Below, one piece after another: positions 1 through 51,025 of a stretch of 51,099 nucleotides of DNA; position 1 is the first letter of the stretch; each line of letters opens with the position of its first letter. Under the pieces are notes generated by a model that had not been told where the DNA came from, ran no database searches, and saw only the letters and a list, made by a program, of their open reading frames with translations. The position numbers were made by a program, and so were the translations under genes. The DNA comes from a phage, in sequence record NC_129764.1; one strand, 5' to 3'.

Positions 1-530
1 ATTGCATGGTGTGCAACAGTTGGTTGATTTGTTGCTGAGATTGCAATGATTGTGAGAGGGGGGATTTAGTGTTACCCGGTTCGCCTGGTGGTCATCTCCA
101 TTTTTAGCAAAACGTGCTATTCGTCTATGCGGTAGTTGTAATTGTCGTAATAGTTGTATACCATTAGGGGTGTTACAAAATGGCCCGAGAATCGATAGGC
201 CTATAGATAATAAAATATCTATATATAATAATAAGATAGATAATATATATTTATTTATTTATTATATTATATATTGGTATGTAATCGGCGTAATAGGTGC
301 AACCGCATTTTTTGAGGGTGGCATATATTTCGTGATGCATAGTATAAAAAACATACTATTCCGCGCGCATAAATAGATGTTCTTACTTTTATAGAAAAAG
401 TCGGTTGCATCGGTTGCACTGGTTACAAAAATAAAAAATGCAGCTATAGACATTGACGCGCCTGACGTTGTAGCTGTAACATGTTTTTCGAAGTTGAAAG
501 TTACACCCATAGACAACGAGGTATAGACAA
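1..530. promoter_or_regulatory. AT-rich non-coding control region with GTTACA/GTTGCA-type repeats and (TATAGATAATA)-like tracts
   Basis: No convincing ORF; AT tracts 200-290; repeated gttaca/gttgca/tgtaac words; shares GGTGTTACAAAAT (169-181) with the region at 30868-30881. Confidence 0.5.
103..121 (-). promoter_or_regulatory. dyad motif copy (rc reads AATAGCACGTTTTGCTAAA), minus orientation
   Basis: Direct sequence match to the recurrent motif; points toward window start. Confidence 0.5.
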
Positions 531-1106
531 GTGAAAACTCAGCTTAAAGAAGTGACAGAATTTGAACTCAACCTGCCGGACTATATTCGAAAGGCGATTG
601 AAATCCACCAATCAGGCGGTGAGTTCTCAATCACCGGAAAGCAAATGGTTGAAGTGTACGTCAATGAGCAGGCCGAGATTGTAAAGGCTACTCAGGGCGT
701 GGAACTTAACGATGACCAGATCGATGAGGCAGTCGTTAACGAGTACACATCTCGATCAGCCTGGTTGCTCGAGCGACTCACCGCGTCGTACGTGTCCAAT
801 ATCATCAAGCGCCACATGCTCAAGGCGCACAATAAGGCCGTATCTGTGCGAATCAACCGCGATCAGGTTGACGGGGTGACGATATTCATAACCGAACTCG
901 AAGGCGAGGAAGCAGAGAAGGCCATAGGCGAAGCTAAACAGGGCAAGAGAGGTCGCAAGCGAAAGAGCATAGCCGACACGTTCAATGCTAAGGTTGAGGC
1001 GTTCAGAATCGATTTGAGGGATTTTGAAGGTAGCAATATCTCGGTATCCGATCTCAATAAGCTGGTCGAGCAATTCCGCTCGCATTTACTGGATGAGGAG
1101 AAATAA
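531..1106 (+). CDS. hypothetical early protein (191 aa), GTG start
   Basis: Long ORF, GAGG 10 nt upstream, acidic with KRGRKRK basic patch. Confidence 0.55.
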   Translation: MKTQLKEVTEFELNLPDYIRKAIEIHQSGGEFSITGKQMVEVYVNEQAEIVKATQGVELNDDQIDEAVVNEYTSRSAWLLERLTASYVSNIIKRHMLKAHNKAVSVRINRDQVDGVTIFITELEGEEAEKAIGEAKQGKRGRKRKSIADTFNAKVEAFRIDLRDFEGSNISVSDLNKLVEQFRSHLLDEEK

Positions 1107-1108
1107 TC

Positions 1109-1348
1109 ATGAGCAAAATTAAGCATGACGACCTGAAAGGTGTATTAATGCAACTCAATCCAGGTCAAGCATTCCAACTTAACCCCGAGACGTTCGGATT
1201 CAATGGGAGCTATCGCACAACATTTGAGTTCATCCGGTATGTAAAGAGGGAGTTAGGAATTGATGTTATTCAAGCTGGGCTTATTAATGGCATTCAAACA
1301 TTCATATTTAAGCCAAGCGAGATTCGTTGCCTCACTCTGATGAAATAG
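1109..1348 (+). CDS. hypothetical protein (79 aa)
   Basis: ORF with RBS ggagaaataatcATG; stop TAG lies inside the dyad motif. Confidence 0.55.
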   Translation: MSKIKHDDLKGVLMQLNPGQAFQLNPETFGFNGSYRTTFEFIRYVKRELGIDVIQAGLINGIQTFIFKPSEIRCLTLMK

Positions 1349-1364
1349 CACTTTTTGTTAAAGC
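1344..1364 (+). promoter_or_regulatory. dyad motif copy AATAGCACTTTTTGTTAAAGC
   Basis: Sequence match; intergenic. Confidence 0.6.
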
Positions 1365-1420
1365 CCGGTCGAGCGGATCGGGTATTATCTTTTCATCGAC
1401 ACGATACAGAGGAAACGAAG

Positions 1421-1615
1421 ATGGAAACGCAAATTGATGCGGTTGTTGTTCAGCGCGACTCAACTCACGAAAAGGGTCTATTCAAGAAAGGAACCGAAAT
1501 CACGATCGACCTTGAGGATATGGTTGCATATCACTCGGGCCTTACCTGGAACGTGGTGCGCGTAGGCAGCGACTACAAACTCAAAGGCTTTAACACTTAC
1601 TTTGCGGAGGTTTAA
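1421..1615 (+). CDS. hypothetical protein (64 aa)
   Basis: ATG with RBS gaggaaacgaagATG; the track ORF at 1355 begins at TTG inside the motif. Confidence 0.5.
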   Translation: METQIDAVVVQRDSTHEKGLFKKGTEITIDLEDMVAYHSGLTWNVVRVGSDYKLKGFNTYFAEV

Positions 1616-1617
1616 TC

Positions 1618-2088
1618 ATGGCGACAATTACCGTATTCCTGGCTAAAGATGAGATTGACGATGAAATGTCATTCTTCGCATTCGAGCACAAAACCGGATC
1701 GCACTGGCACACTTACAGCCATTACACGGTTATCCCAATCGAAGCGTACGACGGCGAACTGCTCACTGATAAACTTAGTAATTTCATTGAAGATGTTAAT
1801 GCTAGCGGTGGCTGCGAGTGGAAAGAAGATCACGAAGTTATTCGAATGCTTGAGATGGTCAACCCGGTCCGTCTTGAGTCGTTCGAGCTTGATGCTGATG
1901 TGTCTATTAAGGTGAGAAAGTCTGGTGAGTTATTGCCAGGGATGCGCGTGCTGACTGGTTACTCGGGCCGTAAAGTGTGGCGCACTGTGTCGAAGGTTCG
2001 CCAGCGTTCAGAAACATGCTACAGCATATTCTTTGAGGATGGCTGGAATGTGATGGCTGGTAGCGAAGTAAAATATCTCACCAAATAG
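1618..2088 (+). CDS. hypothetical protein (156 aa)
   Basis: ORF; stop TAG is part of the motif at 2084. Confidence 0.6.
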   Translation: MATITVFLAKDEIDDEMSFFAFEHKTGSHWHTYSHYTVIPIEAYDGELLTDKLSNFIEDVNASGGCEWKEDHEVIRMLEMVNPVRLESFELDADVSIKVRKSGELLPGMRVLTGYSGRKVWRTVSKVRQRSETCYSIFFEDGWNVMAGSEVKYLTK

Positions 2089-2104
2089 CACGAATTGTTA
2101 AAAC
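2084..2104 (+). promoter_or_regulatory. dyad motif copy AATAGCACGAATTGTTAAAAC
   Basis: Sequence match; followed by hairpin ggggta-N12-tacccc containing TGATATAGT. Confidence 0.65.
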
Positions 2105-2166
2105 CGGATCGGGGTATCTTGATATAGTTACCCCATCGAAAAGAGATACCAATCAGAGGATTCACC

Positions 2167-2397: not shown

Positions 2398-2403
2398 ATA
2401 ATT

Positions 2404-2917: not shown

Positions 2918-3109
2918 ATGGCTGATTTTATGCACCAAATGATTGCAGTATTCAAAGGCAGCGATGACCAGGAGGTGAAAGAGTGCTTTACTGTCGATAA
3001 GCCTTATAACGCATCGCTAACCAGCTTCGGGAATATCTCATTGCTTGATGATAATGGCGACCCCTGGATATTCGACGAAGATACTGATTGCTTCGAAATT
3101 AAAGAATAG
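2918..3109 (+). CDS. small acidic protein (63 aa)
   Basis: ORF, RBS ggatgttaaaATG; stop TAG in motif. Confidence 0.5.
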   Translation: MADFMHQMIAVFKGSDDQEVKECFTVDKPYNASLTSFGNISLLDDNGDPWIFDEDTDCFEIKE

Positions 3110-3125
3110 CACTTTTTGTTAAAAC
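3105..3125 (+). promoter_or_regulatory. dyad motif copy AATAGCACTTTTTGTTAAAAC
   Basis: Sequence match; downstream hairpin ggggtt-N-aacccc with TATAGT. Confidence 0.65.
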
Positions 3126-3180
3126 TAAATATAGGGGTTGCGCTATAGTAACCCCATCGACAACGAACGAGGACGATAGC

Positions 3181-3669
3181 ATGAAAATCAAATTACTTTG
3201 CACTGGCGGTTACAAGGGCTTTACCCGAGATCTGGAAGCAGACCCTATCGTGGTTGATGCGGTGAAGTGTGATTCCAGTACCGGAGGCTACCGCGTTAAG
3301 GTTGACGATCTGGTTAAAGCTGGCGTGTACGATCTGGACTATGGACTTTCGGTTAGCCCTGTATTTGGTCCGGCTGACTTTAACGAGAATGACGGAACGA
3401 TGTTCTTCTTCGAATGGGAAGTCCAAGCAAATCCTAAGCCGCGCAAGGTTCGACTTCTCAGTAATGGCGGCTACCCGCTGCGACAAGGCTATGAGAACCG
3501 CACATTCCCAGTTATCGTGGACTTTGAAGAAATTACTAGCAATCTGGCATACGTTAACGATGAGCAGTTGCGAGCCGTTGGATTTGTCGGCGGGATGAAT
3601 AAAGAGCCGCTATGCTTCTTCCATTGTAAAGCCGAGCCGTTCGATATTGAGTGCGAGTTAGTATACTAA
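3181..3669 (+). CDS. hypothetical protein (162 aa)
   Basis: ORF, RBS gaggacgatagcATG. Confidence 0.6.
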   Translation: MKIKLLCTGGYKGFTRDLEADPIVVDAVKCDSSTGGYRVKVDDLVKAGVYDLDYGLSVSPVFGPADFNENDGTMFFFEWEVQANPKPRKVRLLSNGGYPLRQGYENRTFPVIVDFEEITSNLAYVNDEQLRAVGFVGGMNKEPLCFFHCKAEPFDIECELVY

Positions 3670-3686
3670 GCACGAATTGTTAAAAT
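3666..3686 (+). promoter_or_regulatory. dyad motif variant CTAAGCACGAATTGTTAAAAT
   Basis: Sequence match; followed 22 nt later by TGGTATAAT. Confidence 0.6.
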
Positions 3687-3740
3687 GGGATTTGTCCTGA
3701 CTGGTATAATCCCCACATCAACCACTAATAGGAAAGCATC

Positions 3741-4226: not shown

Positions 4227-4375
4227 TGACTGCATGGGTTTTGATTATCTTAATGAGTACCGGGCCAGATCACGTATACATGGAAAGCCAACAATCATGC
4301 AACAAGGCACGGGAAGTTATCGCAGAAAATAAGCCGTTCGGATATGAAGTAAAAACTATGTGTGTTAAACGATAG
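4226..4375 (+). CDS. small protein (49 aa)
   Basis: TAATG overlap with upstream stop; hydrophobic N-terminus; stop TAG in motif; below track cutoff. Confidence 0.3.
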   Translation: MTAWVLIILMSTGPDHVYMESQQSCNKAREVIAENKPFGYEVKTMCVKR

Positions 4376-4390
4376 CACGAATTGCTAAAC
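4372..4390 (+). promoter_or_regulatory. dyad motif copy ATAGCACGAATTGCTAAAC
   Basis: Sequence match; downstream hairpin aaggcca-tttgatatag-tggcctt. Confidence 0.65.
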
Positions 4391-4455
4391 CTTCCGCAAG
4401 GCCATTTGATATAGTGGCCTTATTGAAGCAGAGCAACCAATCAGAGGAATCGGCT

Positions 4456-5546: not shown

Positions 5547-5765
5547 ATGGCTACTATCATGACAGCAGAAGATGCAGCGCGTGACGCAGTGGAAGGAATG
5601 CGCCCAAATACCTCCAGAATCGCACACTACTACAAATCTGAGGTGTCGGCAGTGCAATTGGTCCACGAAATTTTAAGGCTCCCACAAGTCGATTCAGCGC
5701 GCGTGGTGACGTGCTTAAAAAATTATTTTTGCATCACTATTAAAACGAATAGCACGAATTGCTAA
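5547..5765 (+). CDS. hypothetical protein (72 aa)
   Basis: ORF; overlaps an alternative 36-aa ORF at 5452-5562. Confidence 0.35.
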   Translation: MATIMTAEDAARDAVEGMRPNTSRIAHYYKSEVSAVQLVHEILRLPQVDSARVVTCLKNYFCITIKTNSTNC

Positions 5766-5768
5766 AAC
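5748..5768 (+). promoter_or_regulatory. dyad motif copy AATAGCACGAATTGCTAAAAC
   Basis: Sequence match; hairpin ggggaatgcgctatgattcccc downstream. Confidence 0.65.
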
Positions 5769-5822
5769 CTATCAAGGGGAATGCGCTATGATTCCCCTAC
5801 ACCAAAAAACGAGGGAACACTC

Positions 5823-6269
5823 ATGAAACATTTGATTTGCATTGAAACGCCTAACGATGAATACACCCTGCACGGCATCGGAATGTTCAAAGGTCACTAC
5901 ATGACAGCAAGTATTTATGATGCGCGTCGCGGCGATGGCGATCTGATGATTACCTCAAAAGAGGTTAATCCGTACATCATGCAGAATCTTGGAAATAACG
6001 AATATATGGCCTACGGCTGCAACGCGGTGTATAAGCATATCAAGATCCGCAAGCGTGTCGTGCGAGCATTCAAGAAAATTGCAATGAAACACTGGAAGAT
6101 GAGCAAGAAAGATGCCGGACATTGGGCGCGTAACGTTGCAGATTCATACTTCTACCGTAACGGCGAGTCATGCTACTTCCTGATCGATGAAATGATGGAA
6201 AATTATAGCGGCACATTCTGCCAAAGTGATTTTGACGCCTGGGCTGACTACGAGGTCGATTGCTGGTAA
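5823..6269 (+). CDS. hypothetical protein (148 aa)
   Basis: ATG with RBS gagggaacactcATG. Confidence 0.55.
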   Translation: MKHLICIETPNDEYTLHGIGMFKGHYMTASIYDARRGDGDLMITSKEVNPYIMQNLGNNEYMAYGCNAVYKHIKIRKRVVRAFKKIAMKHWKMSKKDAGHWARNVADSYFYRNGESCYFLIDEMMENYSGTFCQSDFDAWADYEVDCW

Positions 6270-6288
6270 TAGCACGAATTGCTAAAAC
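6268..6288 (+). promoter_or_regulatory. dyad motif copy AATAGCACGAATTGCTAAAAC
   Basis: Sequence match; hairpin aagggca-tttgttagaa-tgccctt. Confidence 0.65.
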
Positions 6289-6352
6289 TTGCTCAAGGGC
6301 ATTTGTTAGAATGCCCTTCGTTGAGTTAAGCAACCAATCAGAGGAATAAATC

Positions 6353-6994: not shown

Positions 6995-7567
6995 ATGAAA
7001 ACAGCTATCATTTTAAACGGCGCGCCGGGCGCAGGCAAAGACACTATCGGATGCATCCTGGCCGACACTTACGATCACGTAGCGCTACGCAGCTTCAAGG
7101 CGCCAATGTTTGAGATTGCCCGAGCAATATTGGGTGAGACTAATTTCGAATACTTCATGTTCTTGTATGAGGACCGTCGATATAAAGAAGAGCCAGCATC
7201 AATCCTGAACGGTAAAAGCCCGCGCCAGTTTATGATCTGGATTAGCGAGGAGGTCATCAAGCCGCAGTTCGGAAATCGCTTCTTCGGTATGCGAGCGGAA
7301 AGCAAGGTGAAAGAGTCTCACTCCCTTTCGGTATTTACTGACGGTGGATTCAAAGACGAGATCTTGCAGATGATTGAAGGTGATATCCAGGTAAAGCTAT
7401 GTCGAATCCATCGCAACGGTTGCAACTTTGACAACGACAGCCGCGACTATATCTATCTTGACGATATGATCGGGGTCAACGGTTATCAGGAATGTGACTT
7501 CTTTTCTGTCGAAGGCCATCCAGAAATTACCGCCCAGCACATAGCCGCCACGTTCATCAACAAATAG
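6995..7567 (+). CDS. P-loop kinase (190 aa), possibly polynucleotide or nucleotide kinase
   Basis: Walker A GAPGAGKDT at N-terminus. Confidence 0.6.
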   Translation: MKTAIILNGAPGAGKDTIGCILADTYDHVALRSFKAPMFEIARAILGETNFEYFMFLYEDRRYKEEPASILNGKSPRQFMIWISEEVIKPQFGNRFFGMRAESKVKESHSLSVFTDGGFKDEILQMIEGDIQVKLCRIHRNGCNFDNDSRDYIYLDDMIGVNGYQECDFFSVEGHPEITAQHIAATFINK

Positions 7568-7583
7568 CACGAATTGCTAAAAC
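7563..7583 (+). promoter_or_regulatory. dyad motif copy AATAGCACGAATTGCTAAAAC
   Basis: Sequence match; stop TAG embedded. Confidence 0.65.
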
Positions 7584-7639
7584 GTCGGTGGGGTGATTTG
7601 ATATAGTTACCTCATCGACAACGAAGAGAGAAAATCGAA

Positions 7640-9393: not shown

Positions 9394-9413
9394 AATAGCA
9401 CTAAATGTTAAAC
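9394..9413 (+). promoter_or_regulatory. dyad motif variant AATAGCACTAAATGTTAAAC
   Basis: Sequence match upstream of packaging genes. Confidence 0.55.
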
Positions 9414-9428
9414 AAAGAGGATTGATTT

Positions 9429-15314: not shown

Positions 15315-16082
15315 ATGCCTTACGAAAATTTAATGTTACGCCCGGCGTGCCCTGGTAATCTTTCGGATACTTCAACCTACAATATTGATGGATCTTGTGT
15401 TGCCCAAGGCGATATTGAGTTCGGCTCCGCTGTTAAAGTTATCGGTATTGTTGACGGCGTTAAGGTTGTTTCCACGCTTACTGATGGTGAAACACCTTAC
15501 GGAATCGCTTTCCGTTCCCAATATGAACACCTGAGCGGTAAAATCCTCGACGGTGAAGTTTGCAACGTCGTTTCTCATGGTCGCGTGTGGACGCTAACTT
15601 CTCTTGATGAAGCTCCGGCCTTGTTCTCAAAGTTACAATTTGGATCTGGTGGTGTTGTTACTGGTAGCTCTGGTTCCGTAGGTTGGACTTTTGCTGGTGG
15701 ATTTGTTAAGCACGAGGACGGGTACATTATTGAGGTTCAGGTTAAGCAAAATGCCTTTATTGTTCCACCTCCACCCCCTCCCGTGGTTCTTGTTGAGTCT
15801 GCGACGATTACAACTAACAAGGAGAGTCCTCAGCCAAACAATGCACCTGTGCAATTTAACGTTGCTGTAAAACCTGACAATGCCACCGATAAAACTGGCG
15901 TGTGGTCTGTTGATGCTGAAAATATTGCGACAATAGATCCAAAATCTGGCGTTCTTACTCCAATTGGTGGAGATGCGGCAGGTAGCGTAATCGTAAATTG
16001 GACGGCTAACGATGCCAGCAAAACTAAAGAATCGATCACTTATGTTTTTGATGCTGCGCCAACCGAAGAAGAAGAGTCATAA
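15315..16082 (+). CDS. capsid-associated protein, paralogue 2, with poly-Pro linker and Ig-like (Big_2-like) C-terminal domain (255 aa)
   Basis: Paralogue of 14779-15255; PPPPPPVV linker; C-terminal segment resembles bacterial Ig-like domain. Confidence 0.5.
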   Translation: MPYENLMLRPACPGNLSDTSTYNIDGSCVAQGDIEFGSAVKVIGIVDGVKVVSTLTDGETPYGIAFRSQYEHLSGKILDGEVCNVVSHGRVWTLTSLDEAPALFSKLQFGSGGVVTGSSGSVGWTFAGGFVKHEDGYIIEVQVKQNAFIVPPPPPPVVLVESATITTNKESPQPNNAPVQFNVAVKPDNATDKTGVWSVDAENIATIDPKSGVLTPIGGDAAGSVIVNWTANDASKTKESITYVFDAAPTEEEES

Positions 16083-16101
16083 CACAAAAATACTTTGACG
16101 C

Positions 16102-16120
16102 TTTAACAAAAAGTGCTATT
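16102..16120 (-). promoter_or_regulatory. dyad motif copy, reversed (plus strand TTTAACAAAAAGTGCTATT)
   Basis: Sequence match; lies between TTGACG and TATTAT upstream of the capsid gene. Confidence 0.55.
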
Positions 16121-19826: not shown

Positions 19827-19866
19827 CATTTCTGTAAAATCATCGTATCAACTTTTCACTATTCTC

Positions 19867-19886
19867 TTTTAACAAAAAGTGCTATT
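19867..19886 (-). promoter_or_regulatory. dyad motif copy, reversed (plus strand TTTTAACAAAAAGTGCTATT)
   Basis: Sequence match directly abutting the RBS aaccaatcaggag of the tail chaperone gene. Confidence 0.55.
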
Positions 19887-19906
19887 AACCAATCAGGAGA
19901 AATATC

Positions 19907-23456: not shown

Positions 23457-23810
23457 ATGGCGGCACTTGATACTTTTAGTTGGTGTACGCAGGTTCAAGG
23501 GGGCGGCGGCTCCCTCACCACTACCAACAATGACAGATCCATACAGTTTGGCAACGGCTACATGCAGCTTGCATCTTCTGGATTTAACACCACGAGACGC
23601 GAGTATTCGGTTGTCTACGCTGGTGATGATTTCATGGCTGTTTACAACTTCTGTGATTCTCATCGAATTAAACCTTTCGCATGGACACCTCCAGACGGGA
23701 AGATCGGGGTATGGGTAGTTAAGCCAAATAGTTTGGGAGCGAAACCTGTATCACGGGACGTGATGGAAATTAACGTAACGTTTATGGAGCAGTTTACATC
23801 TATGCAATAG
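23457..23810 (+). CDS. minor tail protein (M-like, 117 aa)
   Basis: Synteny after tape measure. Confidence 0.65.
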   Translation: MAALDTFSWCTQVQGGGGSLTTTNNDRSIQFGNGYMQLASSGFNTTRREYSVVYAGDDFMAVYNFCDSHRIKPFAWTPPDGKIGVWVVKPNSLGAKPVSRDVMEINVTFMEQFTSMQ

Positions 23811-23826
23811 CACTTAGTGACAAAAG
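23806..23826 (+). promoter_or_regulatory. dyad motif variant AATAGCACTTAGTGACAAAAG
   Basis: Partial match; stop TAG embedded. Confidence 0.4.
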
Positions 23827-31282: not shown

Positions 31283-32347
31283 ATGTTCCAGGTATTCACA
31301 TCAAACCAGCTTTCTAATGACGAGTATCATAGCAATGAAGGTTGGGCGGCAGAGTATGTAAGCGGATCGAGCCTTGCAGAAATTTATCAGACCTGCCCGG
31401 CTAACTGGCGATTCAAGAAAAACGAGACAACGAAAGCGCTGGAGTTCGGTACTCAGTCTCATACCAACTTCGAGAGTCGCGATCTGTTTACTGCAACTTA
31501 TGCTCGTTGTCCGGCTCCGTCAGAGTTTAAAGATCTCATTACTTCGCAAGCCGCTCTGGCATCGAAATTAAAATCATTCGGCCTGAAAGGTACATCCGGT
31601 AAGCAGTACCCCGATCTCATCAAAATGATGGTTGATTGTGGTGAGGAACTAAACGTTCAATACCTGATTGAACTGATCGCAGAAGCTGAGGCGCGCGCTG
31701 AAGGAAAGAAACTCGTTGACGCTGACAAATACGATGCATGCATGAAAATGAGAGCCATTCTTGAGCAAAACCCGGATCATGAAGCGTGCATCAACAGTGA
31801 AACGGCGCAGCGTGAGATTTCAATCTTCGGTGAGATATCCGGCGTCAAAGTTAAGGTTCGACTCGATCATCTTGACTACAAAGAGAATGTCCCGGGTCGT
31901 GTGCTGACTGGTTATGATGAGAATGGCGATCCGGTTTATGAAGACGTAATTTTCCCGGAAGCGCTGATTATAACTGACTTCAAAACCACGATGAGCGCCA
32001 ACCCGTTAGAGTTCCCGAGACTGGCATACAATCACGGGTATTATCTGAAAATGGCCTTGCAGCATGACCTGCTACGACGCGCAATCCAGGCTGGCGCTTT
32101 TGAGGGTAACTTCCCGGAAGATATCCCGATCGTAGTTCGATTGCTGGCTCAGGAGAAAAAAGAGCCTTACATCGCACTTGCTTACCGTATGACTATGGAG
32201 CAAATCAGGATCGGTCGTAGCCAGTATGTTAGCGTAGTCCACACTTACAAGGCTTGCTCTGAAATGGATGTTTGGCCTGGGTACGCTGGCGACGCAAGCG
32301 AGATTGAACTTGAAACGCCATCATGGGTGCGTTACCAAAATAAGTAA
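31283..32347 (+). CDS. putative recombination exonuclease (PD-(D/E)XK-like, 354 aa)
   Basis: Position upstream of Erf and SSB; D-x-K-like segment ITDFKTT. Confidence 0.5.
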   Translation: MFQVFTSNQLSNDEYHSNEGWAAEYVSGSSLAEIYQTCPANWRFKKNETTKALEFGTQSHTNFESRDLFTATYARCPAPSEFKDLITSQAALASKLKSFGLKGTSGKQYPDLIKMMVDCGEELNVQYLIELIAEAEARAEGKKLVDADKYDACMKMRAILEQNPDHEACINSETAQREISIFGEISGVKVKVRLDHLDYKENVPGRVLTGYDENGDPVYEDVIFPEALIITDFKTTMSANPLEFPRLAYNHGYYLKMALQHDLLRRAIQAGAFEGNFPEDIPIVVRLLAQEKKEPYIALAYRMTMEQIRIGRSQYVSVVHTYKACSEMDVWPGYAGDASEIELETPSWVRYQNK

Positions 32348-32421
32348 ACGGCACAAATAGCTAAACAAATAATTAATGAGGTGTTATAATGCACCTCATA
32401 CACCAATCAGGAGAAGTTAAG

Positions 32422-35714: not shown

Positions 35715-35734
35715 AATAGCACGAATTGCTAAAT
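35715..35734 (+). promoter_or_regulatory. dyad motif copy AATAGCACGAATTGCTAAAT (reads reversed relative to the tail fibre gene)
   Basis: Sequence match about 20 nt upstream of the tail fibre start; TTGCAA-N17-TAAAAT on minus strand just upstream. Confidence 0.55.
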
Positions 35735-35774
35735 ACAGATTTTATCATTGTGCTATGGGTCTTGCAACGTGCAA

Positions 35775-36731: not shown

Positions 36732-36788
36732 TTCCAGATCTCCAAATAAAAAACGCGTAGAAGGATGTTAACCCGCTACGCGTCGTTT

Positions 36789-36809
36789 GTTTTAACTAAA
36801 AATGCTATT
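36789..36809 (-). promoter_or_regulatory. dyad motif variant (minus strand AATAGCATTTTTAGTTAAAAC)
   Basis: Sequence match; encodes the C-terminal NSIFS-stop of the upstream gene; followed on minus strand by hairpin acgcgtag/ctacgcgt plus T-run. Confidence 0.55.
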
Positions 36810-37244
36810 GGTCGTTCCGATATCTTCCTTCTTCACAACCCGCATGAATTTCTTGTTCTTGCATCGCTTCTCAAGGCACTTTCCGTTACCATCAAACTTG
36901 AGGTCGAATCTCAGCCATGCTGCGCGGTATCCTTTACACCCCTGTCGGCGGTAAGCGCGATGTGCAGCCTCAGCGCCTTGCCACGAAATCATGTTGCGTT
37001 CTTTCCAGCCTTGCACCGTCTGATTCGTTACTTTTAGTGCCTTTGCGCAGGCCGCAGGGCCACCATAATATTCGATAAGCGCATCAAGTCGTGCTCGCAA
37101 TCCGGCGCGTGTTTCTTCCTTATGAATATAGAACCCGCAGCGCTGTCGTGGCTTTTTGTCTTTACCGCGTCGAGTTCCGTTGTTACCATTGATGTGACGT
37201 TTATCGATTTCACCAGTTGACTCCGCGATGCGTTGAATACTCAT
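36792..37244 (-). CDS. putative DNA-binding protein with Cro/YdaS-like HTH (150 aa)
   Basis: ATG with RBS aggagaattaagATG; segment GGPAACAKALKVTNQTVQGWKERNMISWQGA resembles Cro/YdaS-type HTH. Confidence 0.5.
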   Translation of the reverse strand: MSIQRIAESTGEIDKRHINGNNGTRRGKDKKPRQRCGFYIHKEETRAGLRARLDALIEYYGGPAACAKALKVTNQTVQGWKERNMISWQGAEAAHRAYRRQGCKGYRAAWLRFDLKFDGNGKCLEKRCKNKKFMRVVKKEDIGTTNSIFS

Positions 37245-37256
37245 CTTAATTCTCCT

Positions 37257-37277
37257 ATAGCACTTTTTGCTAAAAAC
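37257..37277 (+). promoter_or_regulatory. dyad motif copy ATAGCACTTTTTGCTAAAAAC
   Basis: Sequence match at the divergent junction between the HTH gene and helicase. Confidence 0.6.
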
Positions 37278-37338
37278 GTTTACTGTATGCCGTGTATTAT
37301 ATCGTAAACGATACAACGATTCAAAGGATTAAATAGCC

Positions 37339-39357: not shown

Positions 39358-39770
39358 TTACAGACAAAGGCGATTACTTAGAGTTTTACGAGCGAGATCC
39401 TAGCGACACGAGAAAGGAGGACGCTCATCAAGTAGATTGCGTATCCTGGTTGAAATACAATTTTCCTCAGCTTCTATTTTGGCACACAGTTAATGAAGGT
39501 GAAAAAACAATAACGTCGGCGCTAAGGGATGAACAGTCTGGATTACTCAAAGGTGTGTCAGACTTTGTTATTCTGATTGGTATAAACTCACGCTACCCGT
39601 TTGCAGCTATCGAACTAAAGAGGGTTAATAAGTCCGGCAAAGGAAAGGCATCACCAGTCAGCGATAAGCAAAGGGAGTTTCTCAAAAAGGTTCGTGATCG
39701 CGGAGGATTCTCTGCCGTCGCATACGGATTTGAGCAATTCAAGCTGGCAATATACGATTTAACGAAATAG
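39354..39770 (+). CDS. VRR-NUC domain nuclease (138 aa)
   Basis: GVSDFVIL ... AIELKR ... SDKQREFL pattern typical of VRR-NUC. Confidence 0.6.
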   Translation: MITDKGDYLEFYERDPSDTRKEDAHQVDCVSWLKYNFPQLLFWHTVNEGEKTITSALRDEQSGLLKGVSDFVILIGINSRYPFAAIELKRVNKSGKGKASPVSDKQREFLKKVRDRGGFSAVAYGFEQFKLAIYDLTK

Positions 39771-39786
39771 CACTTTTTGTTAAAAC
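39766..39786 (+). promoter_or_regulatory. dyad motif copy AATAGCACTTTTTGTTAAAAC
   Basis: Sequence match; stop TAG embedded; hairpin tgccggaatggaatctggca downstream. Confidence 0.65.
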
Positions 39787-39837
39787 TGCCGGAATGGAAT
39801 CTGGCATTATTATCTCACCGAAACGAGAGGATTAAAA

Positions 39838-40551: not shown

Positions 40552-40799
40552 TGAGCGAAAAAATGGTTCCTGTTAAATTAACTGATCAAGGGTTATGGCT
40601 TCTTTATCGCGCTACGTGCTGCGAAATTATGGAGCGAAACGGATTAACTCAAGATGTTATTGGTTGCGATTTATGGGAGTTTACAAGTTCTCTTGATATG
40701 TCGTTCGATGAGATAAAGAATAAACATATCGAGCATTGGCCTTCAATCATTCAGAAAGACGTAGAAGAACTTAAATCCGACACGATCTTACAGCACTAA
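40548..40799 (+). CDS. hypothetical protein (83 aa)
   Basis: ATGA overlap with methylase gene. Confidence 0.5.
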   Translation: MMSEKMVPVKLTDQGLWLLYRATCCEIMERNGLTQDVIGCDLWEFTSSLDMSFDEIKNKHIEHWPSIIQKDVEELKSDTILQH

Positions 40800-40809
40800 T
40801 TGCTAAAAC
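40791..40809 (+). promoter_or_regulatory. dyad motif variant CAGCACTAATTGCTAAAAC
   Basis: Sequence match; hairpin acccggcgaaagtcgggt followed by TATAGT. Confidence 0.55.
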
Positions 40810-40865
40810 TACCCGGCGAAAGTCGGGTATAGTTATTTCATCAAAACGAAATGAGGAATAAGAAT

Positions 40866-41075: not shown

Positions 41076-41325
41076 ACGCGAGGTTTGGGAGCACGCGAAG
41101 GAGTGCGGGATCTCAGGTGATATAGCACTAATAGCCAAATATTTCGATATAAAGGATGTTAGCATTATCTCAAATGGCAAGATTTCATTTATGGAAGATA
41201 TGCCGAGAAAAATGCATAGAGTGCCAGCCACCCCATCACTTGAATTTTATCGTGAAGAAGGAAAGAGAATTGAGAGAGAACGAAAAACAGCAAAGAACAA
41301 TAAGTCTTCCAGGATTAAACATTAA
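41053..41325 (+). CDS. hypothetical protein (90 aa); possibly the 5' part of a frameshifted gene continuing to 41557
   Basis: ORF with RBS; an overlapping ORF in another frame (41156-41557) has a protein-like 3' half without a plausible start. Confidence 0.35.
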   Translation: MLIKKQGKREVWEHAKECGISGDIALIAKYFDIKDVSIISNGKISFMEDMPRKMHRVPATPSLEFYREEGKRIERERKTAKNNKSSRIKH

Positions 41326-42798: not shown

Positions 42799-42850
42799 TC
42801 CCGAAGGGATTCGGGTATATTGACCACATAGAAAACAAAGAGGGTATTTC

Positions 42851-44478: not shown

Positions 44479-44539
44479 AATGCTTTCCTTCGGGTCGCCT
44501 CGTTTCGATGAAACAAATATACCCGATACGAGATCGGGT

Positions 44540-44560
44540 GTTTTAACAAAAAGTGCTATT
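44540..44560 (-). promoter_or_regulatory. dyad motif copy (minus strand AATAGCACTTTTTGTTAAAAC)
   Basis: Sequence match; hairpin acccgatctcgtatcgggt followed by TATATT. Confidence 0.65.
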
Positions 44561-45079: not shown

Positions 45080-46648
45080 TTAACCCATTAGTCGAGGATT
45101 GATGAAAACAATATCATCAATGCGGCAAGTGTAGTTCATCTCTTCGAGCGTGATCAGTAGGCTATCGATTCGCTCAGATACTTTCTGTTGACCGTTGAAC
45201 GGAGTAACGTTCCGGCACTTTGCAACAATACTATGAATAGGCGCGCGCCCTTTGTTCTTCTTTGCGATCTCAGTGATAACATCAATCAGCTTACGAGATT
45301 CAGCCTCATCACCTGCATACCCGGCAGCGCTGGCAGATGACAGGTAAGTCCTGGAAAGCTCATTGAAAATCATGATCGCTTCTTGCATTGTTTCAAGGTC
45401 AATCTCACGGTTGGATCGGTTCGGTGATTCGCCTTCCCAATTCTTGATCGTGTGTAGAACTGAAGCAATACGCAAAGCGTGCTTATCGAACTTGCCGAGA
45501 TGACCGCGAAGCATTGAGTGAGAGTATTTTCCCCCGGCGGCGAAATCAGGCTCCATCGCCTGGCGTGCAAGGTTTAATTCACGCATAGCATTACGGCTCA
45601 CAGAGAGAACAACGTTGTCCTCCTTCATGATGTTGTGCACGAGTCTGTAATATTTGCTAACCAGTCCGCGATCGACTTCTTTATACAGTGCATCACCATT
45701 TTCATCACAAAGAATACGAGTACCTAAAAGCGGTTCCTCTCGAACCAGGAGGAAACGCTCAGATACACCGATACCGCGCTGGCCTGCGTCCATGATACCC
45801 TTGATTGTTTCATCCTGAGCAATTACGCAGATTGAACCGACCGGGCATAGAGATAAGTTGTTATCCTGGTTGGAACGAGCGACCTCCATATGGTTTTTAT
45901 CCCACGCCTTAAGGATAAGCTCACTGTTAGATTTCTTATCTGAACCGCCATACGTAAGCCCGAGCAATGTATTGATTGCCGTTGCCTCGTCAGATATTAC
46001 GGAAAAGTGACCTTGCACTGCCGCCACTTTCGCAAGACCTTCAGGTGTAGGATCTGATACCGCGAAAACAATATCAGCCATCTTCTTGATCTTCTCTTCC
46101 AGTTTTTCTTTGTCCTCGTACAGTGCCGCCGTAGTGTTGCCTTTAGGATCATTCTTGATTTCCTTCTCAACCTGGCGTAGCTGACTGGTTAAACGGATAC
46201 GTTCCTTTTTGCGCTCTTCATTCAGTCGCTGAATCTCCGCACGCATAGGTGTAATCGCCGCTGAGTTAATCGCGGACTTACCTGTTGATGGTGGCTGGCT
46301 GATTACCATGTAAAGCGCGGTCGGCTGTTCCTCTCCGTGATATTGCACCCAAAACTTCCCTAGCATCGCGGCTGAGATGCAACCGATAAAATGAGCATAC
46401 GCGGATGAAACCGGGAACTGGACTGATTCAGCTTTTGCTTTTGCATATTCGAATACCAGGTTATCGCCACCTAACGAAATCAGAGGGAACTTATCGTTGC
46501 CGCTATTAATATCGATCGGGTCTTGCCAAAACGAAACGGAATCACCGTAGCTGTTTTCACGAATTGCGATCGCCACCGGGTTAACTCCAGTGCTATTGGC
46601 GATCTCAATAATCTGTTGGTAATTCAGTTTTGGCTTAATGTTAAACAT
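45080..46648 (-). CDS. putative P-loop NTPase (522 aa)
   Basis: ATG with RBS aaggagtttattgtgATG; Walker A-like PPSTGKS; central coiled-coil. Confidence 0.55.
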   Translation of the reverse strand: MFNIKPKLNYQQIIEIANSTGVNPVAIAIRENSYGDSVSFWQDPIDINSGNDKFPLISLGGDNLVFEYAKAKAESVQFPVSSAYAHFIGCISAAMLGKFWVQYHGEEQPTALYMVISQPPSTGKSAINSAAITPMRAEIQRLNEERKKERIRLTSQLRQVEKEIKNDPKGNTTAALYEDKEKLEEKIKKMADIVFAVSDPTPEGLAKVAAVQGHFSVISDEATAINTLLGLTYGGSDKKSNSELILKAWDKNHMEVARSNQDNNLSLCPVGSICVIAQDETIKGIMDAGQRGIGVSERFLLVREEPLLGTRILCDENGDALYKEVDRGLVSKYYRLVHNIMKEDNVVLSVSRNAMRELNLARQAMEPDFAAGGKYSHSMLRGHLGKFDKHALRIASVLHTIKNWEGESPNRSNREIDLETMQEAIMIFNELSRTYLSSASAAGYAGDEAESRKLIDVITEIAKKNKGRAPIHSIVAKCRNVTPFNGQQKVSERIDSLLITLEEMNYTCRIDDIVFINPRLMG

Positions 46649-46702
46649 CACAATAAACTCCTTAGTTGACGGTGTGAATGATACACCGCCAATGTTACAC
46701 GC

Positions 46703-46722
46703 GTTTTGCAAAAAGTGCTATT
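46703..46722 (-). promoter_or_regulatory. dyad motif variant (minus strand AATAGCACTTTTTGCAAAAC)
   Basis: Sequence match about 55 nt upstream of the P-loop gene. Confidence 0.55.
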
Positions 46723-46724
46723 GG

Positions 46725-47141
46725 TTATAAGTATTTGGCCTCAAAGGTTGTGCCGTCAGCAATACTAAAACCAACCTCTTCGCGGAATAATGTCCAGCGG
46801 CAACCGTCCTCATCAAAGATGTAACCAGCCACTCCACCGAGAGCGCGACCGCTTTCCACCTGGTAACGCTTGCCAACTTTGAATGATTTTTTCATTGGGT
46901 TGCGATGGTCAAGCCCTGTACACTTGAGTGTTTTGGTTTTAAGTTCAGTGAATTTTGCGAAGAAGATTTCATCAGATCCGTGAATCTGTAATTCATCGTG
47001 CTTTTCAAGTTTTAAATACTTACCACACTTTAACTTAACCTCGCGAGTACCATCGTATCGCTCTCGACCTTTGTACAGGTTGTTAACTTCAAATCCTGTG
47101 ATTTTGTCTGCGGAAGTACACTTAAGTTTGATGGATTTCAT
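46725..47141 (-). CDS. hypothetical protein (138 aa)
   Basis: RBS context aaccaatcaggagttaacgcaATG. Confidence 0.55.
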   Translation of the reverse strand: MKSIKLKCTSADKITGFEVNNLYKGRERYDGTREVKLKCGKYLKLEKHDELQIHGSDEIFFAKFTELKTKTLKCTGLDHRNPMKKSFKVGKRYQVESGRALGGVAGYIFDEDGCRWTLFREEVGFSIADGTTFEAKYL

Positions 47142-47200
47142 TGCGTTAACTCCTGATTGGTTATCTTGAATAAGGTCACTTTATCAAATGACCTTACGGC

Positions 47201-47223
47201 AATATTAACAAATCGTGCTATTT
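47201..47223 (-). promoter_or_regulatory. dyad motif variant (minus strand AAATAGCACGATTTGTTAATATT)
   Basis: Sequence match; hairpin aaggtca-tttgataaag-tgacctt. Confidence 0.6.
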
Positions 47224-47662: not shown

Positions 47663-47879
47663 TTTTAATTCCTTTGTTTCGTTTGGTGTGGGAGTAATAT
47701 ACCTTACTCCATATTTATTGTCTTTAGCAATTGGTGCTATCAGTATTCTGAAATTACTTTACACTCTTTGATTGTTCCACCTAGCACTACTTTCTGCATC
47801 ATTGCTTTTTGGTGGCTATCATAAACGCGAACATTTTTTACGCTGTTAAATTTGCCAGTATAGAAAGTGTGAATATAAA

Positions 47880-48200: not shown

Positions 48201-48216
48201 TATTCCCCCTAACCAG

Positions 48217-48781: not shown

Positions 48782-48838
48782 AACTCTTTCCTCGCTTGCT
48801 GTTGATGGGATGACTATACCAGCCATCCCGGATGAGCG

Positions 48839-48857
48839 TTTAGCAAAAAGTGCTATT
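48839..48857 (-). promoter_or_regulatory. dyad motif copy (minus strand AATAGCACTTTTTGCTAAA)
   Basis: Sequence match; hairpin gggatggctggtatagtcatccc. Confidence 0.65.
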
Positions 48858-49403: not shown

Positions 49404-49458
49404 CTAGTCATTCTCCTGATTGGTTTATGTTGGAGTTATACCCTGATTAACCGGGCGT

Positions 49459-49479
49459 GTTTTAACAAAAAGTGCTATT
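49459..49479 (-). promoter_or_regulatory. dyad motif copy (minus strand AATAGCACTTTTTGTTAAAAC)
   Basis: Sequence match. Confidence 0.65.
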
Positions 49480-49664
49480 TAGAATTTTACATCCTCAACA
49501 AGCTCGACAAATTTGTATCCCAGGCGATATGAGTCGCCGAACAACAACAGACCCATAAATTCATCTCTGCTTATTGACTGCTTATCAACCGTCCTTAACT
49601 CTCCGTTGTGAATCACAGTATCGCCGATCTTGATTTCTGATTTATGCACTAATTTCGTTTTCAT
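49479..49664 (-). CDS. hypothetical protein (61 aa)
   Basis: ORF. Confidence 0.45.
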   Translation of the reverse strand: MKTKLVHKSEIKIGDTVIHNGELRTVDKQSISRDEFMGLLLFGDSYRLGYKFVELVEDVKF

Positions 49665-49679
49665 TTGTTAGCCCGTTAA

Positions 49680-49865
49680 TTAGAAGAATGCTACATAGTT
49701 TGCAATGCCTTTGGCATCGTCGTTAGGCATCGCCTTGACAGCAAGGTCGTAACCCGCCTCTACCTTTTGCTTTGCTGATTCTTCGTTGTATCCCCAAATA
49801 ACCAGGATTTTAACTACGTTTTCTTTATTCAGAACTTTAAGGTCTTTAGTGATGCGACGTGCCAT
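49680..49865 (-). CDS. hypothetical protein (61 aa)
   Basis: ATG (MARRITK) with RBS gaggaaaacaaaATG. Confidence 0.5.
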   Translation of the reverse strand: MARRITKDLKVLNKENVVKILVIWGYNEESAKQKVEAGYDLAVKAMPNDDAKGIANYVAFF

Positions 49866-49922
49866 TTTGTTTTTCCTCAATCTCGTTTCGATGAGGTAAT
49901 TATGCCAAATCACACCGATCGA

Positions 49923-49943
49923 GTTTTAACAAAAAGTGCTATT
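49923..49943 (-). promoter_or_regulatory. dyad motif copy (minus strand AATAGCACTTTTTGTTAAAAC)
   Basis: Sequence match; downstream hairpin and leader catcgaaacgag. Confidence 0.65.
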
Positions 49944-50630
49944 TGCGATTGCTTTGAAAAATCCACGCGGCGACAGCGATCGTATCAACTTCGTTTTGGC
50001 AGACTTGCCGCCCAGCTTGTTTTGCTGCGCAGAGTACCCGTCAGGCAGGCTTACTGGCTTTCTCTCCGGCATGACAAAATCGTCCGAGGTCCAAAGACAC
50101 GTCTTTTTCGGGTAAGCATCGCGCGGCGCAATATACATCGGGAACCAGGGATGCGCGTCATTCTCAGGAAGATAGCCGCCATACTCCCAGGGATTGAATG
50201 AGTGATCTGGTTTTCTCCAGGCAGATGACAGGACGCTAACCGGATTCTCAATGATGTAAGTCACGCCCAGGGCGTCGCCAATATTCGCAGCAATCCGTGC
50301 GGTGGCAACGGCCTTCTCCTGGAATAACGGATCACGTTCACGCTTGCTGGCAAAGTGGCGAGCACCACTAACAGCCAGGTCAGTACACGGAGGGAAGGCC
50401 ATAATAAAATCCGGCTTGCCATACACGCCAGCGATAGCATCACGCTCAAACGCTGCGTCAATGAAGACGTTCACATACTCAATGTTCGGATGCTCAACCC
50501 TGGCGTTATACTTTGCGTAATCTCCGTGATCGGCTCCGTCAAAGTTGAAGCACATCACCTTATGACCTTGCTTTGCCAGTTCATGACCAGCAAGGCCGGA
50601 ACCGTCGAATAGTGACCAAATTAATTTCAT
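49926..50630 (-). CDS. minimal C5-cytosine methyltransferase-like protein (234 aa)
   Basis: Motif I-like LFDGSG, motif IV PC (FPPCTDLAVSG), motif VI ENV-like (IENPVSVL); no obvious target recognition domain. Confidence 0.6.
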   Translation of the reverse strand: MKLIWSLFDGSGLAGHELAKQGHKVMCFNFDGADHGDYAKYNARVEHPNIEYVNVFIDAAFERDAIAGVYGKPDFIMAFPPCTDLAVSGARHFASKRERDPLFQEKAVATARIAANIGDALGVTYIIENPVSVLSSAWRKPDHSFNPWEYGGYLPENDAHPWFPMYIAPRDAYPKKTCLWTSDDFVMPERKPVSLPDGYSAQQNKLGGKSAKTKLIRSLSPRGFFKAIANSTFC

Positions 50631-50633
50631 TGC

Positions 50634-50798
50634 TTATTCCTCGCATCCTAATTGCTTGCAGTAGTGTCGCATTTTGCACCAGATCAAAAAGCTATGCCAT
50701 CCTGTGTATGATTGCGCACGTTTCTTTTTCTCGTTCACCACAGCACGCAAGAGAGACTTGCACTCCCCCTTGTTTGTGAATCGACGCATCAATTTCAT
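50634..50798 (-). CDS. small basic Cys-rich protein (54 aa)
   Basis: ATGA overlap with upstream gene; RBS ggagatcgcaaaATG; C-x-x-C-like spacing (WCKMRHYC, GC); below track cutoff. Confidence 0.45.
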   Translation of the reverse strand: MKLMRRFTNKGECKSLLRAVVNEKKKRAQSYTGWHSFLIWCKMRHYCKQLGCEE

Positions 50799-50938
50799 TT
50801 TGCGATCTCCTTTTTGTAGTGATTCAGTTTGTCGATGATTGACTTCGCCTTGTTAGCTAATGCCATGTCAGAGAACAGCGCTACGCGATAGATGTGTTCG
50901 TAACGACTAATGGTTGCGTTGATGTTTGCAGTTGTCAT
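50795..50938 (-). CDS. hypothetical protein (47 aa)
   Basis: ATG (MTTANI) with RBS context ccaatcaggagcaatcgacATG. Confidence 0.45.
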   Translation of the reverse strand: MTTANINATISRYEHIYRVALFSDMALANKAKSIIDKLNHYKKEIAK

Positions 50939-51006
50939 GTCGATTGCTCCTGATTGGTTGATGTGATGAATCATACCTAGTCGACATGGATGAGTCGTTA
51001 GCAAAA

Positions 51007-51025
51007 AATGCTATTCCAATAATTG
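51007..51025 (-). promoter_or_regulatory. dyad motif variant (minus strand AATAGCATTTTTTGCTAAC)
   Basis: Sequence match about 70 nt upstream of the 50938 start. Confidence 0.55.

Follow-up and report, generated by a model that had tools for sequence, protein, structure and literature searches.

The closest described counterpart of the element studied here is a 21-nt direct repeat, aaATAGCACnnnTTGnTAAAA, reported in the 2024 re-annotation of phage TLS, where its 21 copies are oriented with transcription and lie about 76 nt ahead of start codons (PMC11447400). Similar repeats are found in T1, Rtp, and Rogue1, and only three sigma-70-like promoters were recognized in TLS (PMC11447400); the function of the repeat was left open, with a stoperator, an enhancer-binding site, or an UP element as suggestions (Kropinski and co-workers, PMC11447400). 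Here we analyze the corresponding element in the phage sequence NC_129764.1 (51,099 nt; "the window" refers to this whole stretch). It is the same as the TLS repeat in sequence, orientation, distance, and its division into GAA, TTT, and AAA subclasses. The repeat as such is thus already published; what is new is its identity as a consensus host marbox in class II position, which is absent from the literature searched. The TLS paper (PMC11447400) contains neither the marbox identity, nor the fixed distance to an extended -10 element, nor the embedded hairpin described below, and a literature search on marbox and bacteriophage returned nothing linking the two. We propose, with a probability of roughly 0.6, that the repeats belong to promoter cassettes that would depend on the host activators MarA, SoxS, or Rob.

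The marbox or soxbox, the site of these activators, has the asymmetric consensus AYNGCACNNWNNRYYAAAYN (PMC2064960). According to published rules, class II marbox promoters carry a forward marbox over the -35 region, clustered about 41 bp before the start site, and have no -35 consensus (the published mean -35 match is 1.9); micF is the paradigm of this class, with cryo-electron microscopy structures. The cassettes resemble such micF-type promoters, which respond to MarA, SoxS, Rob, or RamA, in that a forward 20-bp marbox replaces the -35 element, with a 20-bp gap, a center near -41, and no -35 consensus. T4 middle promoters are similar in keeping a good -10 element with an activator box in place of the -35 element (TTGCTAAA here). 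The T4 box, TGCTTtA, is however centered near -30 and read by the phage-encoded MotA with AsiA, whereas the cassette box is centered near -40.5 and matches a host activator site. The stoperators of mycobacteriophage L5 are likewise many asymmetric sites oriented with transcription; they are repressor sites of a temperate phage, lie inside transcription units, and block elongation, whereas the copies here occupy a fixed position upstream of -10 elements in a virulent T1-like phage, and we rejected an L5-type stoperator on these grounds.

Distribution of the Repeat in the Window

By megablast of its first 20 kb, the window belongs to a T1-like phage of the genus Tunavirus (family Drexlerviridae), with 90-95% identity to Shigella phages SH6 and ISF002 and Escherichia phage ADB-2. 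The gene order is that of T1 and SH6: the structural genes have small early genes on either side, those to the left on the plus strand and those to the right on the minus strand. With three mismatches allowed at most, the pattern AATAGCACNNNTTGYTAAAAC has 23 matches, compared with 0.16 expected from dinucleotide shuffles (maximum 2). A matrix scan of the window gives 24 strong copies, defined by a score of at least 21 bits (about 0.2 by chance), with the consensus AATAGCAC-N3-TTGYTAAAAC, and about five weaker variants; all are listed in table 1.

These scans, with their shuffled controls, bear out the first-pass annotation, which had described about 26 copies across the genome at a density far above chance. 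Its coordinates are right to within 1-3 nt, apart from a copy placed at 51007 that occupies 50995-51015; its list lacked the copies at 47721 (minus) and at 32347 and 41121 (both plus), and included three, at 3666, 23806, and 42778, that are degenerate. Counted from the motif start, about 21 copies lie 71-85 nt ahead of a start codon with a Shine-Dalgarno sequence and in sense orientation, close to the 60-80 bp originally given. Agreement in orientation with the downstream gene, also claimed, holds for most copies: those at 16100 (minus), 19866 (minus), and 35715 (plus) are antisense to the flanking genes, and the one at 101 (minus) has no downstream gene. A ribosome-binding site directly adjoins the copies at 9394 and 41121 (both plus). 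At several copies the stop codon of the preceding gene is the TAG within AATAGCAC, and at one the stop codon of a methylase gene is the TAA of TTGTTAAAAC (table 1); promoters and genes are tightly packed and overlap.

Identity of the Repeat with the Host Marbox

The repeat had been taken for a dyad-symmetric site of a dimeric protein, an interpretation that its conservation contradicts, the half-sites being under unequal constraint. Of the 24 strong copies, 23 have TAGCA as their left half, whereas TGCTA and TGTTA share the right half with 11 copies each; conservation of the flanks is asymmetric. A pattern search of the window finds the perfect inverted repeat TAGCA-N5-TGCTA only 10 times; by copy tally, 11 of the 24 strong copies have it. 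The two-fold symmetry of an operator for a dimeric helix-turn-helix protein (Cro/CI, or CRP/FNR-like in class II position) is not present.

The alternation of C and T in the right half corresponds to the Y14 position of the asymmetric marbox consensus, and on average 13.0 of the 14 positions specified in AYNGCACNNWNNRYYAAAYN are matched by the 24 strong copies, where matches of at least 13/14 are expected 0.76 times per window by chance. A marbox is bound by a monomer carrying two helix-turn-helix motifs, the AraC-family proteins MarA, SoxS, and Rob, with RamA in Klebsiella and Salmonella. A second matrix was built only from host sites, namely 85 Salmonella sites mapped by chromatin immunoprecipitation sequencing (ChIP-seq); their consensus, GCACTAATTGCTAAA, is an exact 15-mer of the window copy at 40793. 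On this host-derived matrix 25 window matches reach at least 16 bits, against 0.11 in Markov controls. Just 14 of the 85 genuine host sites do so, and the phage copies score at the top of the host-site range. The earlier statement that the motif is not a CRP or FNR site was correct, the site nonetheless being of a host-activator type. Judged by its sequence, the repeat is a consensus marbox of the host kind, not a symmetric dimer site. The phage sites differ from host class II promoters in their setting: a virulent phage carries them, with 24-29 copies per 51 kb, all near consensus, whereas the host sites are degenerate; a hairpin surrounds the -10 element and the leader is conserved; and host-factor binding is here something we infer from sequence.

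Two other host factors have sites with a superficial likeness to the repeat. In the forms used here, the sigma-54 -24/-12 promoter reads TGGCAC-N5-TTGCW and the Lrp site reads YAGHAWATTWTDCTR; GCAC...TTGC recalls the former, and TAGCA and TGCTA fit the outer pentamers of the latter. The repeat has AG for the invariant GG of sigma-54 promoters and N3 for N5, a spacing 2 bp short, with a sigma-70-type -10 element at a fixed distance downstream; copies of the GAA class lack the central AT-rich core of the Lrp consensus, and half of the copies depart from that consensus by having TGTTA. We rejected both candidates, and regard it as scarcely credible that the motif is the site of some such other host protein or sigma factor.

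Promoter Architecture and micF Geometry

Alignment of the copies on the motif reveals a conserved cassette of about 75 bp, with the motif in the upstream half and promoter elements downstream. The order is the 21-mer, 18 variable bp, a -10 element, a 6-7 bp spacer, a conserved CA in CATCGAAACGA, a ribosome-binding site, and the start codon. Here the -10 element and +1 are assignments from sequence alone: the -10 consensus is tGgTATaaT (commonest forms TATAGT, TATTAT, and CATAAT), and the CA within CATCGAAACGA is the probable -1/+1. In 18 of the 28 window copies the GCAC...AAA 15-mer is separated from the -10 hexamer by 20 bp, which is the commonest gap in four other genomes too, namely T1 and three that are more distant. 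TG precedes the -10 element in 35 of 82 modules, as in extended -10 promoters, and a search for TTGACA at a spacing of 16-18 bp gives a best match of 2.38 of 6, compared with 2.49 for random sequence, so that a -35 element is lacking. The fixed gap, the frequent TG, and the missing -35 element therefore indicate sigma-70 promoters, often of the extended -10 type, with the motif at about -51 to -31.

Relative to the inferred +1, the marbox is predicted at about -50 to -31 (the 21-mer at -51 to -31), with its center near -40.5. In all modules with a -10 element GCAC is upstream and AAAAC downstream, the forward orientation of micF. The E. coli micF promoter consists of ACAGCACTGAATGTCAAAAC, 18 bp, TAGAAT, 7 bp, and a +1 G; it has the orientation, the 20-bp gap to the -10 hexamer, and the 3' AAAAC in common with the phage cassettes. 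Consensus match, orientation, position, and weak -35 region therefore all agree with what defines a class II marbox promoter at the sequence level. A specialized promoter class, one of the possibilities raised in the first-pass annotation, describes the cassettes well: across the genome they stand at a fixed distance to an extended -10 element and ahead of most early and middle genes.

The same geometry bears on the idea that no trans-acting factor is involved and that host RNA polymerase reads the motif directly, as an UP-element-like or displaced -35-like sequence boosting extended -10 promoters, which are able to work without a -35 element. UP-like enhancers were proposed by the TLS authors, TTGYTA resembles a -35 hexamer, and AAAAC provides an A-tract at -35 to -31. 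TTGYTA lies, however, 22 bp from the -10 hexamer, beyond the sigma-70 spacer range, and therefore cannot be a -35 element, and the invariant G/C positions of GCAC and TG misfit the UP consensus, which is A/T-rich from -59 to -38 and has no invariant G/C. A 13/14 marbox match at micF spacing, with a chance expectation below 1 per window, would moreover have to be a coincidence, and we find direct reading by the polymerase distinctly unlikely.

Canonical sigma-70 promoters are not enriched (26 vs. 27.2 expected). The best one in the central region, among very few in the region scanned, is TTGACT-16-TATAAT at 31224-31251 (plus; 11/12 matches), upstream of the exonuclease VIII gene and free of a marbox. 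Downstream of the promoters lie two conserved types of leader, one with CATCGA(A/C)AACGA at the predicted +1 and the other with an extended Shine-Dalgarno block, ACCAATCAG(A)GGA, that is common to many unrelated genes (examples at 2136-2166, 4440-4455, 6335-6352, 19887-19906 (plus), and 49404-49420 (minus)).

A Hairpin within the Cassettes

Nearly every cassette contains a GC-rich inverted repeat between the marbox and +1, whose sequence varies from copy to copy. Either its loop holds the -10 element (GGGGTA...TACCCC, AAGGCCA...TGGCCTT, AAGGGCAT...ATGCCCTT), or it lies in the spacer and ends in GGG just ahead of TAT; examples are at 2105-2139, 4392-4426, 7584-7618, and 32368-32402. Over 89 modules from five genomes the mean minimum free energy (MFE) is -9.5 kcal/mol, compared with -4.3 kcal/mol for random 35-mers (Mann-Whitney p = 5e-21). 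Folding favors the sense strand over the antisense strand (-9.41 vs. -7.19 kcal/mol, Wilcoxon p = 7e-11), with 108 G-U pairs against 54. A symmetric DNA cruciform is disfavored because the sense strand folds better, with twice the G-U pairs. The GenBank record of T1 annotates several of the cassette hairpins as rho-independent terminators, and the hairpin at 36758-36809 is a full terminator with a T-run. The folding suggests that the hairpin acts on read-through RNA from the upstream gene, as a terminator, a pause site, or a 3' stabilizer.

Candidate Binders Encoded by the Phage

Homologues of MarA, SoxS, or the N-terminal domain of Rob were not found in the phage by tblastn (best E = 0.55), Pfam scans of 20 open reading frames (ORFs) gave no AraC-type domain, and MotA or AsiA homologues were not seen in the ORFs scanned. 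The first-pass annotation had named a phage-encoded factor as one possible binder; as the likeliest binder such a factor finds no support, since these scans gave no MarA/AraC-type protein and the site is a consensus host marbox with micF geometry.

The sole recognizable phage transcription factor is a Cro-like regulator, the homologue of T1 ST23, whose homologues are confined to T1-like phages. Its gene has a canonical, marbox-free sigma-70 promoter of its own, TTGAAT-17-TATAAT at 37324-37296 (minus), with the -10 element at 37301-37296. Between 37256 and 37324 the helicase marbox promoter (plus) and this sigma-70 promoter (minus) overlap face-to-face. The AlphaFold model of the regulator (predicted local distance difference test score, pLDDT, 81) contains one helix-turn-helix only; in the PDB it comes closest to the all-alpha Cro proteins of Xfaso 1 and N15 (target-normalized template modeling score ~0.72), a weak match (E ~0.02) and not one to MarA. 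That the regulator might be a hidden protein with two helix-turn-helix motifs was rejected on the same model and matches.

Could the motif be the operator or activator site of this regulator, which would be made from its canonical promoter and turn the cassettes on or off by binding the partly palindromic TAGCA-N5-TGCTA at about -42? The regulator gene and the motif co-occur in ~824 T1-like phage records and in all motif-bearing genomes examined, one motif copy lies in the 5' leader of the regulator gene and another at its stop codon, the predicted fold is like that of dimeric Cro proteins, and ten copies do have the perfect 5-bp inverted repeat. The site is nonetheless asymmetric, with every conserved position following the monomer marbox, and spacing and orientation are those of micF. 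The motif also precedes the presumed earliest genes at both genome ends, so that the regulator would be needed before it is made, and the fold match is weak. We therefore consider the Cro-like regulator an unlikely reader of the motif: a site that is asymmetric and agrees with the host marbox position by position speaks for the host activators.

Conservation among T1-Like Phages

Comparison with related T1-like genomes, suggested in the first-pass annotation as a check, shows the cassette to be retained. Counted on the host-derived matrix at a threshold of at least 15 bits (controls ~0.4 per genome), there are 26 copies in the window, 23 in Shigella phage SH6, 19 in T1, 15 in a Klebsiella Webervirus, 17 in a Tempevirinae phage, 12 in a Braunvirinae phage, and 17 in "Pseudomonas phage Motto". 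Four lineages of Drexlerviridae (Tunavirus, Webervirus, Tempevirinae, and Braunvirinae) thus have 12-26 copies per genome, and motif, spacing, and leader are kept across lineages with just ~58-65% identity in the large terminase. A Vibrio myovirus and a temperate Erwinia phage with large-terminase homology, neither T1-like nor Drexlerviridae and included only as negative controls, have 0 copies each. In a scan of viral contigs, all multi-copy contigs were of ~45-53 kb, the T1-like size class.

Three Drexlerviridae records labeled with Campylobacter, Pseudomonas, or Vibrio hosts (MG065671.1, ON843697.1, and NC_054898.2) share the T1-like Cro-like regulator gene. MG065671.1 and ON843697.1 have ~44-45% GC and the same marbox cassettes, 17 each at this threshold. 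The host labels are doubtful, because of the GC content of ~45% and the closeness to enteric phages.

Cassettes as Sites of Gene Replacement

Homology breakpoints relative to T1 or SH6 fall at cassette edges at 2084, 3104, 42772, 44557, 46722/46727, 48858, and 49459. Across both comparisons, 9 of 32 aligned-segment ends are within cassettes, which cover 5.1% of the window (p = 2e-5). The T1 HNH endonuclease genes ST15 and ST8 (T1 42028-42510 and 46085-46624) stand exactly at cassette edges, and neither is present at the corresponding positions of the window (42772-42814 and 46722-46727).

In this respect the cassettes are like the promoter-early stem-loop (PeSL) cassettes of T4-type phages, in which a short, conserved promoter and a stem-loop of variable stem sequence lie between small early genes and are linked to indel and gene-replacement breakpoints (PMC2839356, PMC4122927); conserved promoter, variable stem-loop, position between small ORFs, and association with such breakpoints are all found here. 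They differ from PeSL cassettes in that those have T4 early sigma-70 promoters, in T4-like myoviruses, with the stem-loop beside the promoter, whereas in Drexlerviridae the promoter consists of marbox and extended -10 element and the stem-loop overlaps or encloses the -10 element. A main role for the cassettes in modular gene shuffling, as substrates or boundaries of recombination and in the movement of homing endonucleases, with promoter activity secondary, has the breakpoint enrichment, the positions of ST8 and ST15, and the PeSL precedent in its favor. It leaves the base-by-base marbox match, the fixed -10 phasing, and the near-perfect conservation across lineages that no longer align in the rest of their DNA unexplained, and is to our minds highly unlikely as the primary function; a role in recombination is compatible with class II marbox promoters and better seen as their consequence.

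A Class II Marbox Promoter Model

In the model that we favor, a forward marbox would take the place of the -35 element in a sigma-70 promoter, often one with an extended -10 element (TGnTATAAT). A host activator at the marbox would contact region 4 of sigma-70 and the alpha C-terminal domain and so recruit host RNA polymerase by class II activation; the host polymerase would be used, as the phage encodes no RNA polymerase or sigma factor. Rob is constitutively abundant, and MarA, SoxS, and RamA are stress-induced; the activator would most plausibly be Rob in unstressed cells, with MarA, SoxS, or RamA added under stress. Transcription is predicted to start at the conserved A of CATCGAAACGA, ~25-35 nt ahead of the ribosome-binding site. 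The hairpin would probably serve as a terminator or 3' stabilizer on read-through RNA, in cassettes that coincide with gene-replacement breakpoints.

Several points weigh against this model. Without inducers Rob has little activity, and unstressed cells contain little MarA or SoxS; a fast lytic phage that depended entirely on these proteins would run a risk, and extended -10 promoters may have basal activity without an activator. No binding, activation, or transcript-start data for T1-like phages were found in the literature searched, and rob, marA, and soxS go unmentioned in a Keio-collection screen with the T1-like phage LL5, where redundancy among the three could mask an effect. The co-occurrence of the Cro-like regulator with the motif, and the copy in its 5' leader, count here as well, as would the modules in records labeled with Pseudomonas, Vibrio, or Campylobacter hosts if the labels are correct. 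Finally, the copies at 9394 and 41121, which abut ribosome-binding sites, and that at 101, which has no -10 element, are unable to act as class II promoters, and three copies are antisense.

A wider claim, which we hold tentatively and would rate below even odds, is that nearly all promoter recognition in the Drexlerviridae has been handed to host MarA, SoxS, Rob, or RamA, that expression and burst size rise with the mar, sox, rob, or ram state of the host, that the ~25 super-consensus sites per incoming genome could titrate these regulators from the host regulon, and that the sense-strand hairpins insulate the cassettes on read-through RNA. If true, gene expression and burst would be higher in, for instance, cells exposed to bile salts, salicylate, or oxidative stress, and in multidrug-resistant marR, ramR, or soxR mutants.

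Individual Modules

The modules of the window are collected in table 1. The copies at 16069-16120 (minus), 19835-19886 (minus), and 35715-35766 (plus) are complete modules of marbox and -10 element, each adjoining a terminator hairpin; they point into the 3' ends of a head-region gene, the major tail gene, and the primase gene, respectively, and may be antisense promoters or roadblocks. At 9394-9431 and 41121-41158 just 35 nt separate the motif start from the ATG. These two copies abut the ribosome-binding site and cannot serve those genes as class II promoters; a protein occupying them would be located on the 5' leader.

Table 1. Marbox copies, predicted promoter modules, and the Cro-like regulator gene in NC_129764.1. 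The fourth column gives the start of each repeat copy and its class in the matrix scan (S, strong; W, weaker variant).
Feature	Coordinates	Strand	Copy	Details
Isolated marbox	101..121	-	101, S	Near left end of window; no -10 element
Promoter module	1344..1395	+	1344, S	Marbox 1344-1364; spacer hairpin; -10 TATTAT 1383-1388; predicted +1 near 1395; ATG 1421; upstream stop codon TAG 1346-1348
Promoter module	2084..2135	+	2084, S	Hairpin GGGGTA/TACCCC around TGATATAGT; predicted +1 in CATCGA; ATG 2167; motif TAG 2086-2088 is upstream stop codon; T1 homology breakpoint exactly at 2084
Promoter module	3105..3156	+	3105, S	Hairpin GGGGTT/AACCCC around TATAGT; ATG 3181; upstream stop codon TAG 3107-3109; T1 breakpoint 3104
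Promoter module, degenerate 5' part (CTAAGCAC...)	3666..3717	+	3666, W	-10 TGGTATAAT; ATG 3741
Promoter module	4371..4422	+	4371, S	Marbox 14/14 consensus positions; hairpin AAGGCCA/TGGCCTT around TGATATAGT; ATG 4456; upstream stop codon TAG 4373-4375
Promoter module	5748..5799	+	5748, S	Hairpin GGGGAAT/ATTCCCC around TATGAT; ATG 5823
Promoter module, polynucleotide kinase	6268..6319	+	6268, S	Hairpin AAGGGCAT/ATGCCCTT around TGTTAGAAT; ATG 6353
Promoter module	7563..7614	+	7563, S	14-pair hairpin with G-U pairs around TGATATAGT, MFE -18.4; ATG 7640; upstream stop codon TAG 7565-7567
Marbox abutting ribosome-binding site, small terminase gene	9394..9414	+	9394, S	ATG 9429; no -10 at class II distance
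Marbox and -10 element	16069..16120	-	16100, S	-10 TGTTATGAC; antisense to late (head) genes, beside terminator hairpin
Marbox and -10 element	19835..19886	-	19866, S	-10 TGATACGAT; antisense; between major tail gene and tape-measure chaperone gene
Weak marbox variant AATAGCACTTAGTGACAAAAG	23806..23826	+	23806, W	Followed by terminator hairpin; motif TAG 23808-23810 is upstream stop codon
Promoter module, Erf-like protein	32347..32397	+	32347, W	Variant ACGGCACAAATAGCTAAACA, 14/14 IUPAC; hairpin GAGGTG/CACCTC around TGTTATAAT; ATG 32422
Marbox and -10 element	35715..35766	+	35715, S	-10 TATGGG; antisense into primase gene 3' end
Primase promoter module	36758..36809	-	36789, S	-10 TAACAT in loop of hairpin, then TTTTTT (regulator gene terminator); motif overlaps stop codon of regulator gene; T1 annotates equivalent hairpin as terminator
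Cro-like regulator gene, 150 aa, T1 ST23 homologue	36795..37244	-		
Helicase promoter module	37256..37307	+	37256, S	-10 TATTAT 37295-37300; GTG 37339
Dam methylase promoter module	39766..39817	+	39766, S	Spacer hairpin; ATG 39838; upstream stop codon TAG 39768-39770
Promoter module	40789..40840	+	40789, S	15-mer GCACTAATTGCTAAA, 18.5 bits on host-derived matrix
Marbox variant abutting ribosome-binding site	41121..41141	+	41121, W	ATG 41156
Degenerate module GATCGCACTAATCGCAAAAAA	42777..42828	+	42777, W	Hairpin; -10 TATATT; ATG 42851; site of HNH-gene insertion in T1
Promoter module	44509..44560	-	44540, S	Spacer hairpin CCCGAT/ATCGGG; -10 TATATT
Promoter module upstream of DNA helicase gene	46671..46722	-	46702, S	T1 HNH gene inserted exactly at 5' edge
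Promoter module	47171..47222	-	47202, S	Hairpin AAGGTCA/TGACCTT around TGATAAAGT; ATG 47141
Promoter module, missed in first-pass annotation	47690..47741	-	47721, S	Hairpin GGAGTAA/TTACTCC; ATG 47662
Promoter module	48806..48857	-	48837, S	Hairpin GGGATG/CATCCC around TGGTATAGT; motif TAG 48853-48855 (minus) is upstream stop codon
Promoter module	49428..49479	-	49459, S	ATG 49403; SH6 homology breakpoint 49459
Promoter module	49892..49943	-	49923, S	Upstream methylase stop codon in TAA of TTGTTAAAAC, 49926-49928 (minus)
Promoter module, GCAT variant AATAGCATTTTTTGCTAACGA	50964..51015	-	50995, S	-10 TATGAT

Implications for T1-Like Phages

T1-like phages have long seemed short of sigma-70 promoters, and no function had been assigned to the 21-nt repeat, which has been known since the genomes of T1 and TLS were published; its reading as a class II marbox offers a concrete mechanism that is open to direct test. 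The cassettes also point to a second phage family with PeSL-like shuffling cassettes. If the reading is true, these phages would show clearly how a virulent phage can tie its entire transcription program to a stress and antibiotic-resistance regulon of the host, and the cassettes would be a source of compact, strong promoters that MarA or Rob could tune. TLS-type phages use TolC, a product of the mar regulon, as their receptor, and strains overexpressing RamA or MarA might, again if the reading holds, be better hosts for the Webervirus and Tunavirus phages used against Klebsiella and E. coli.

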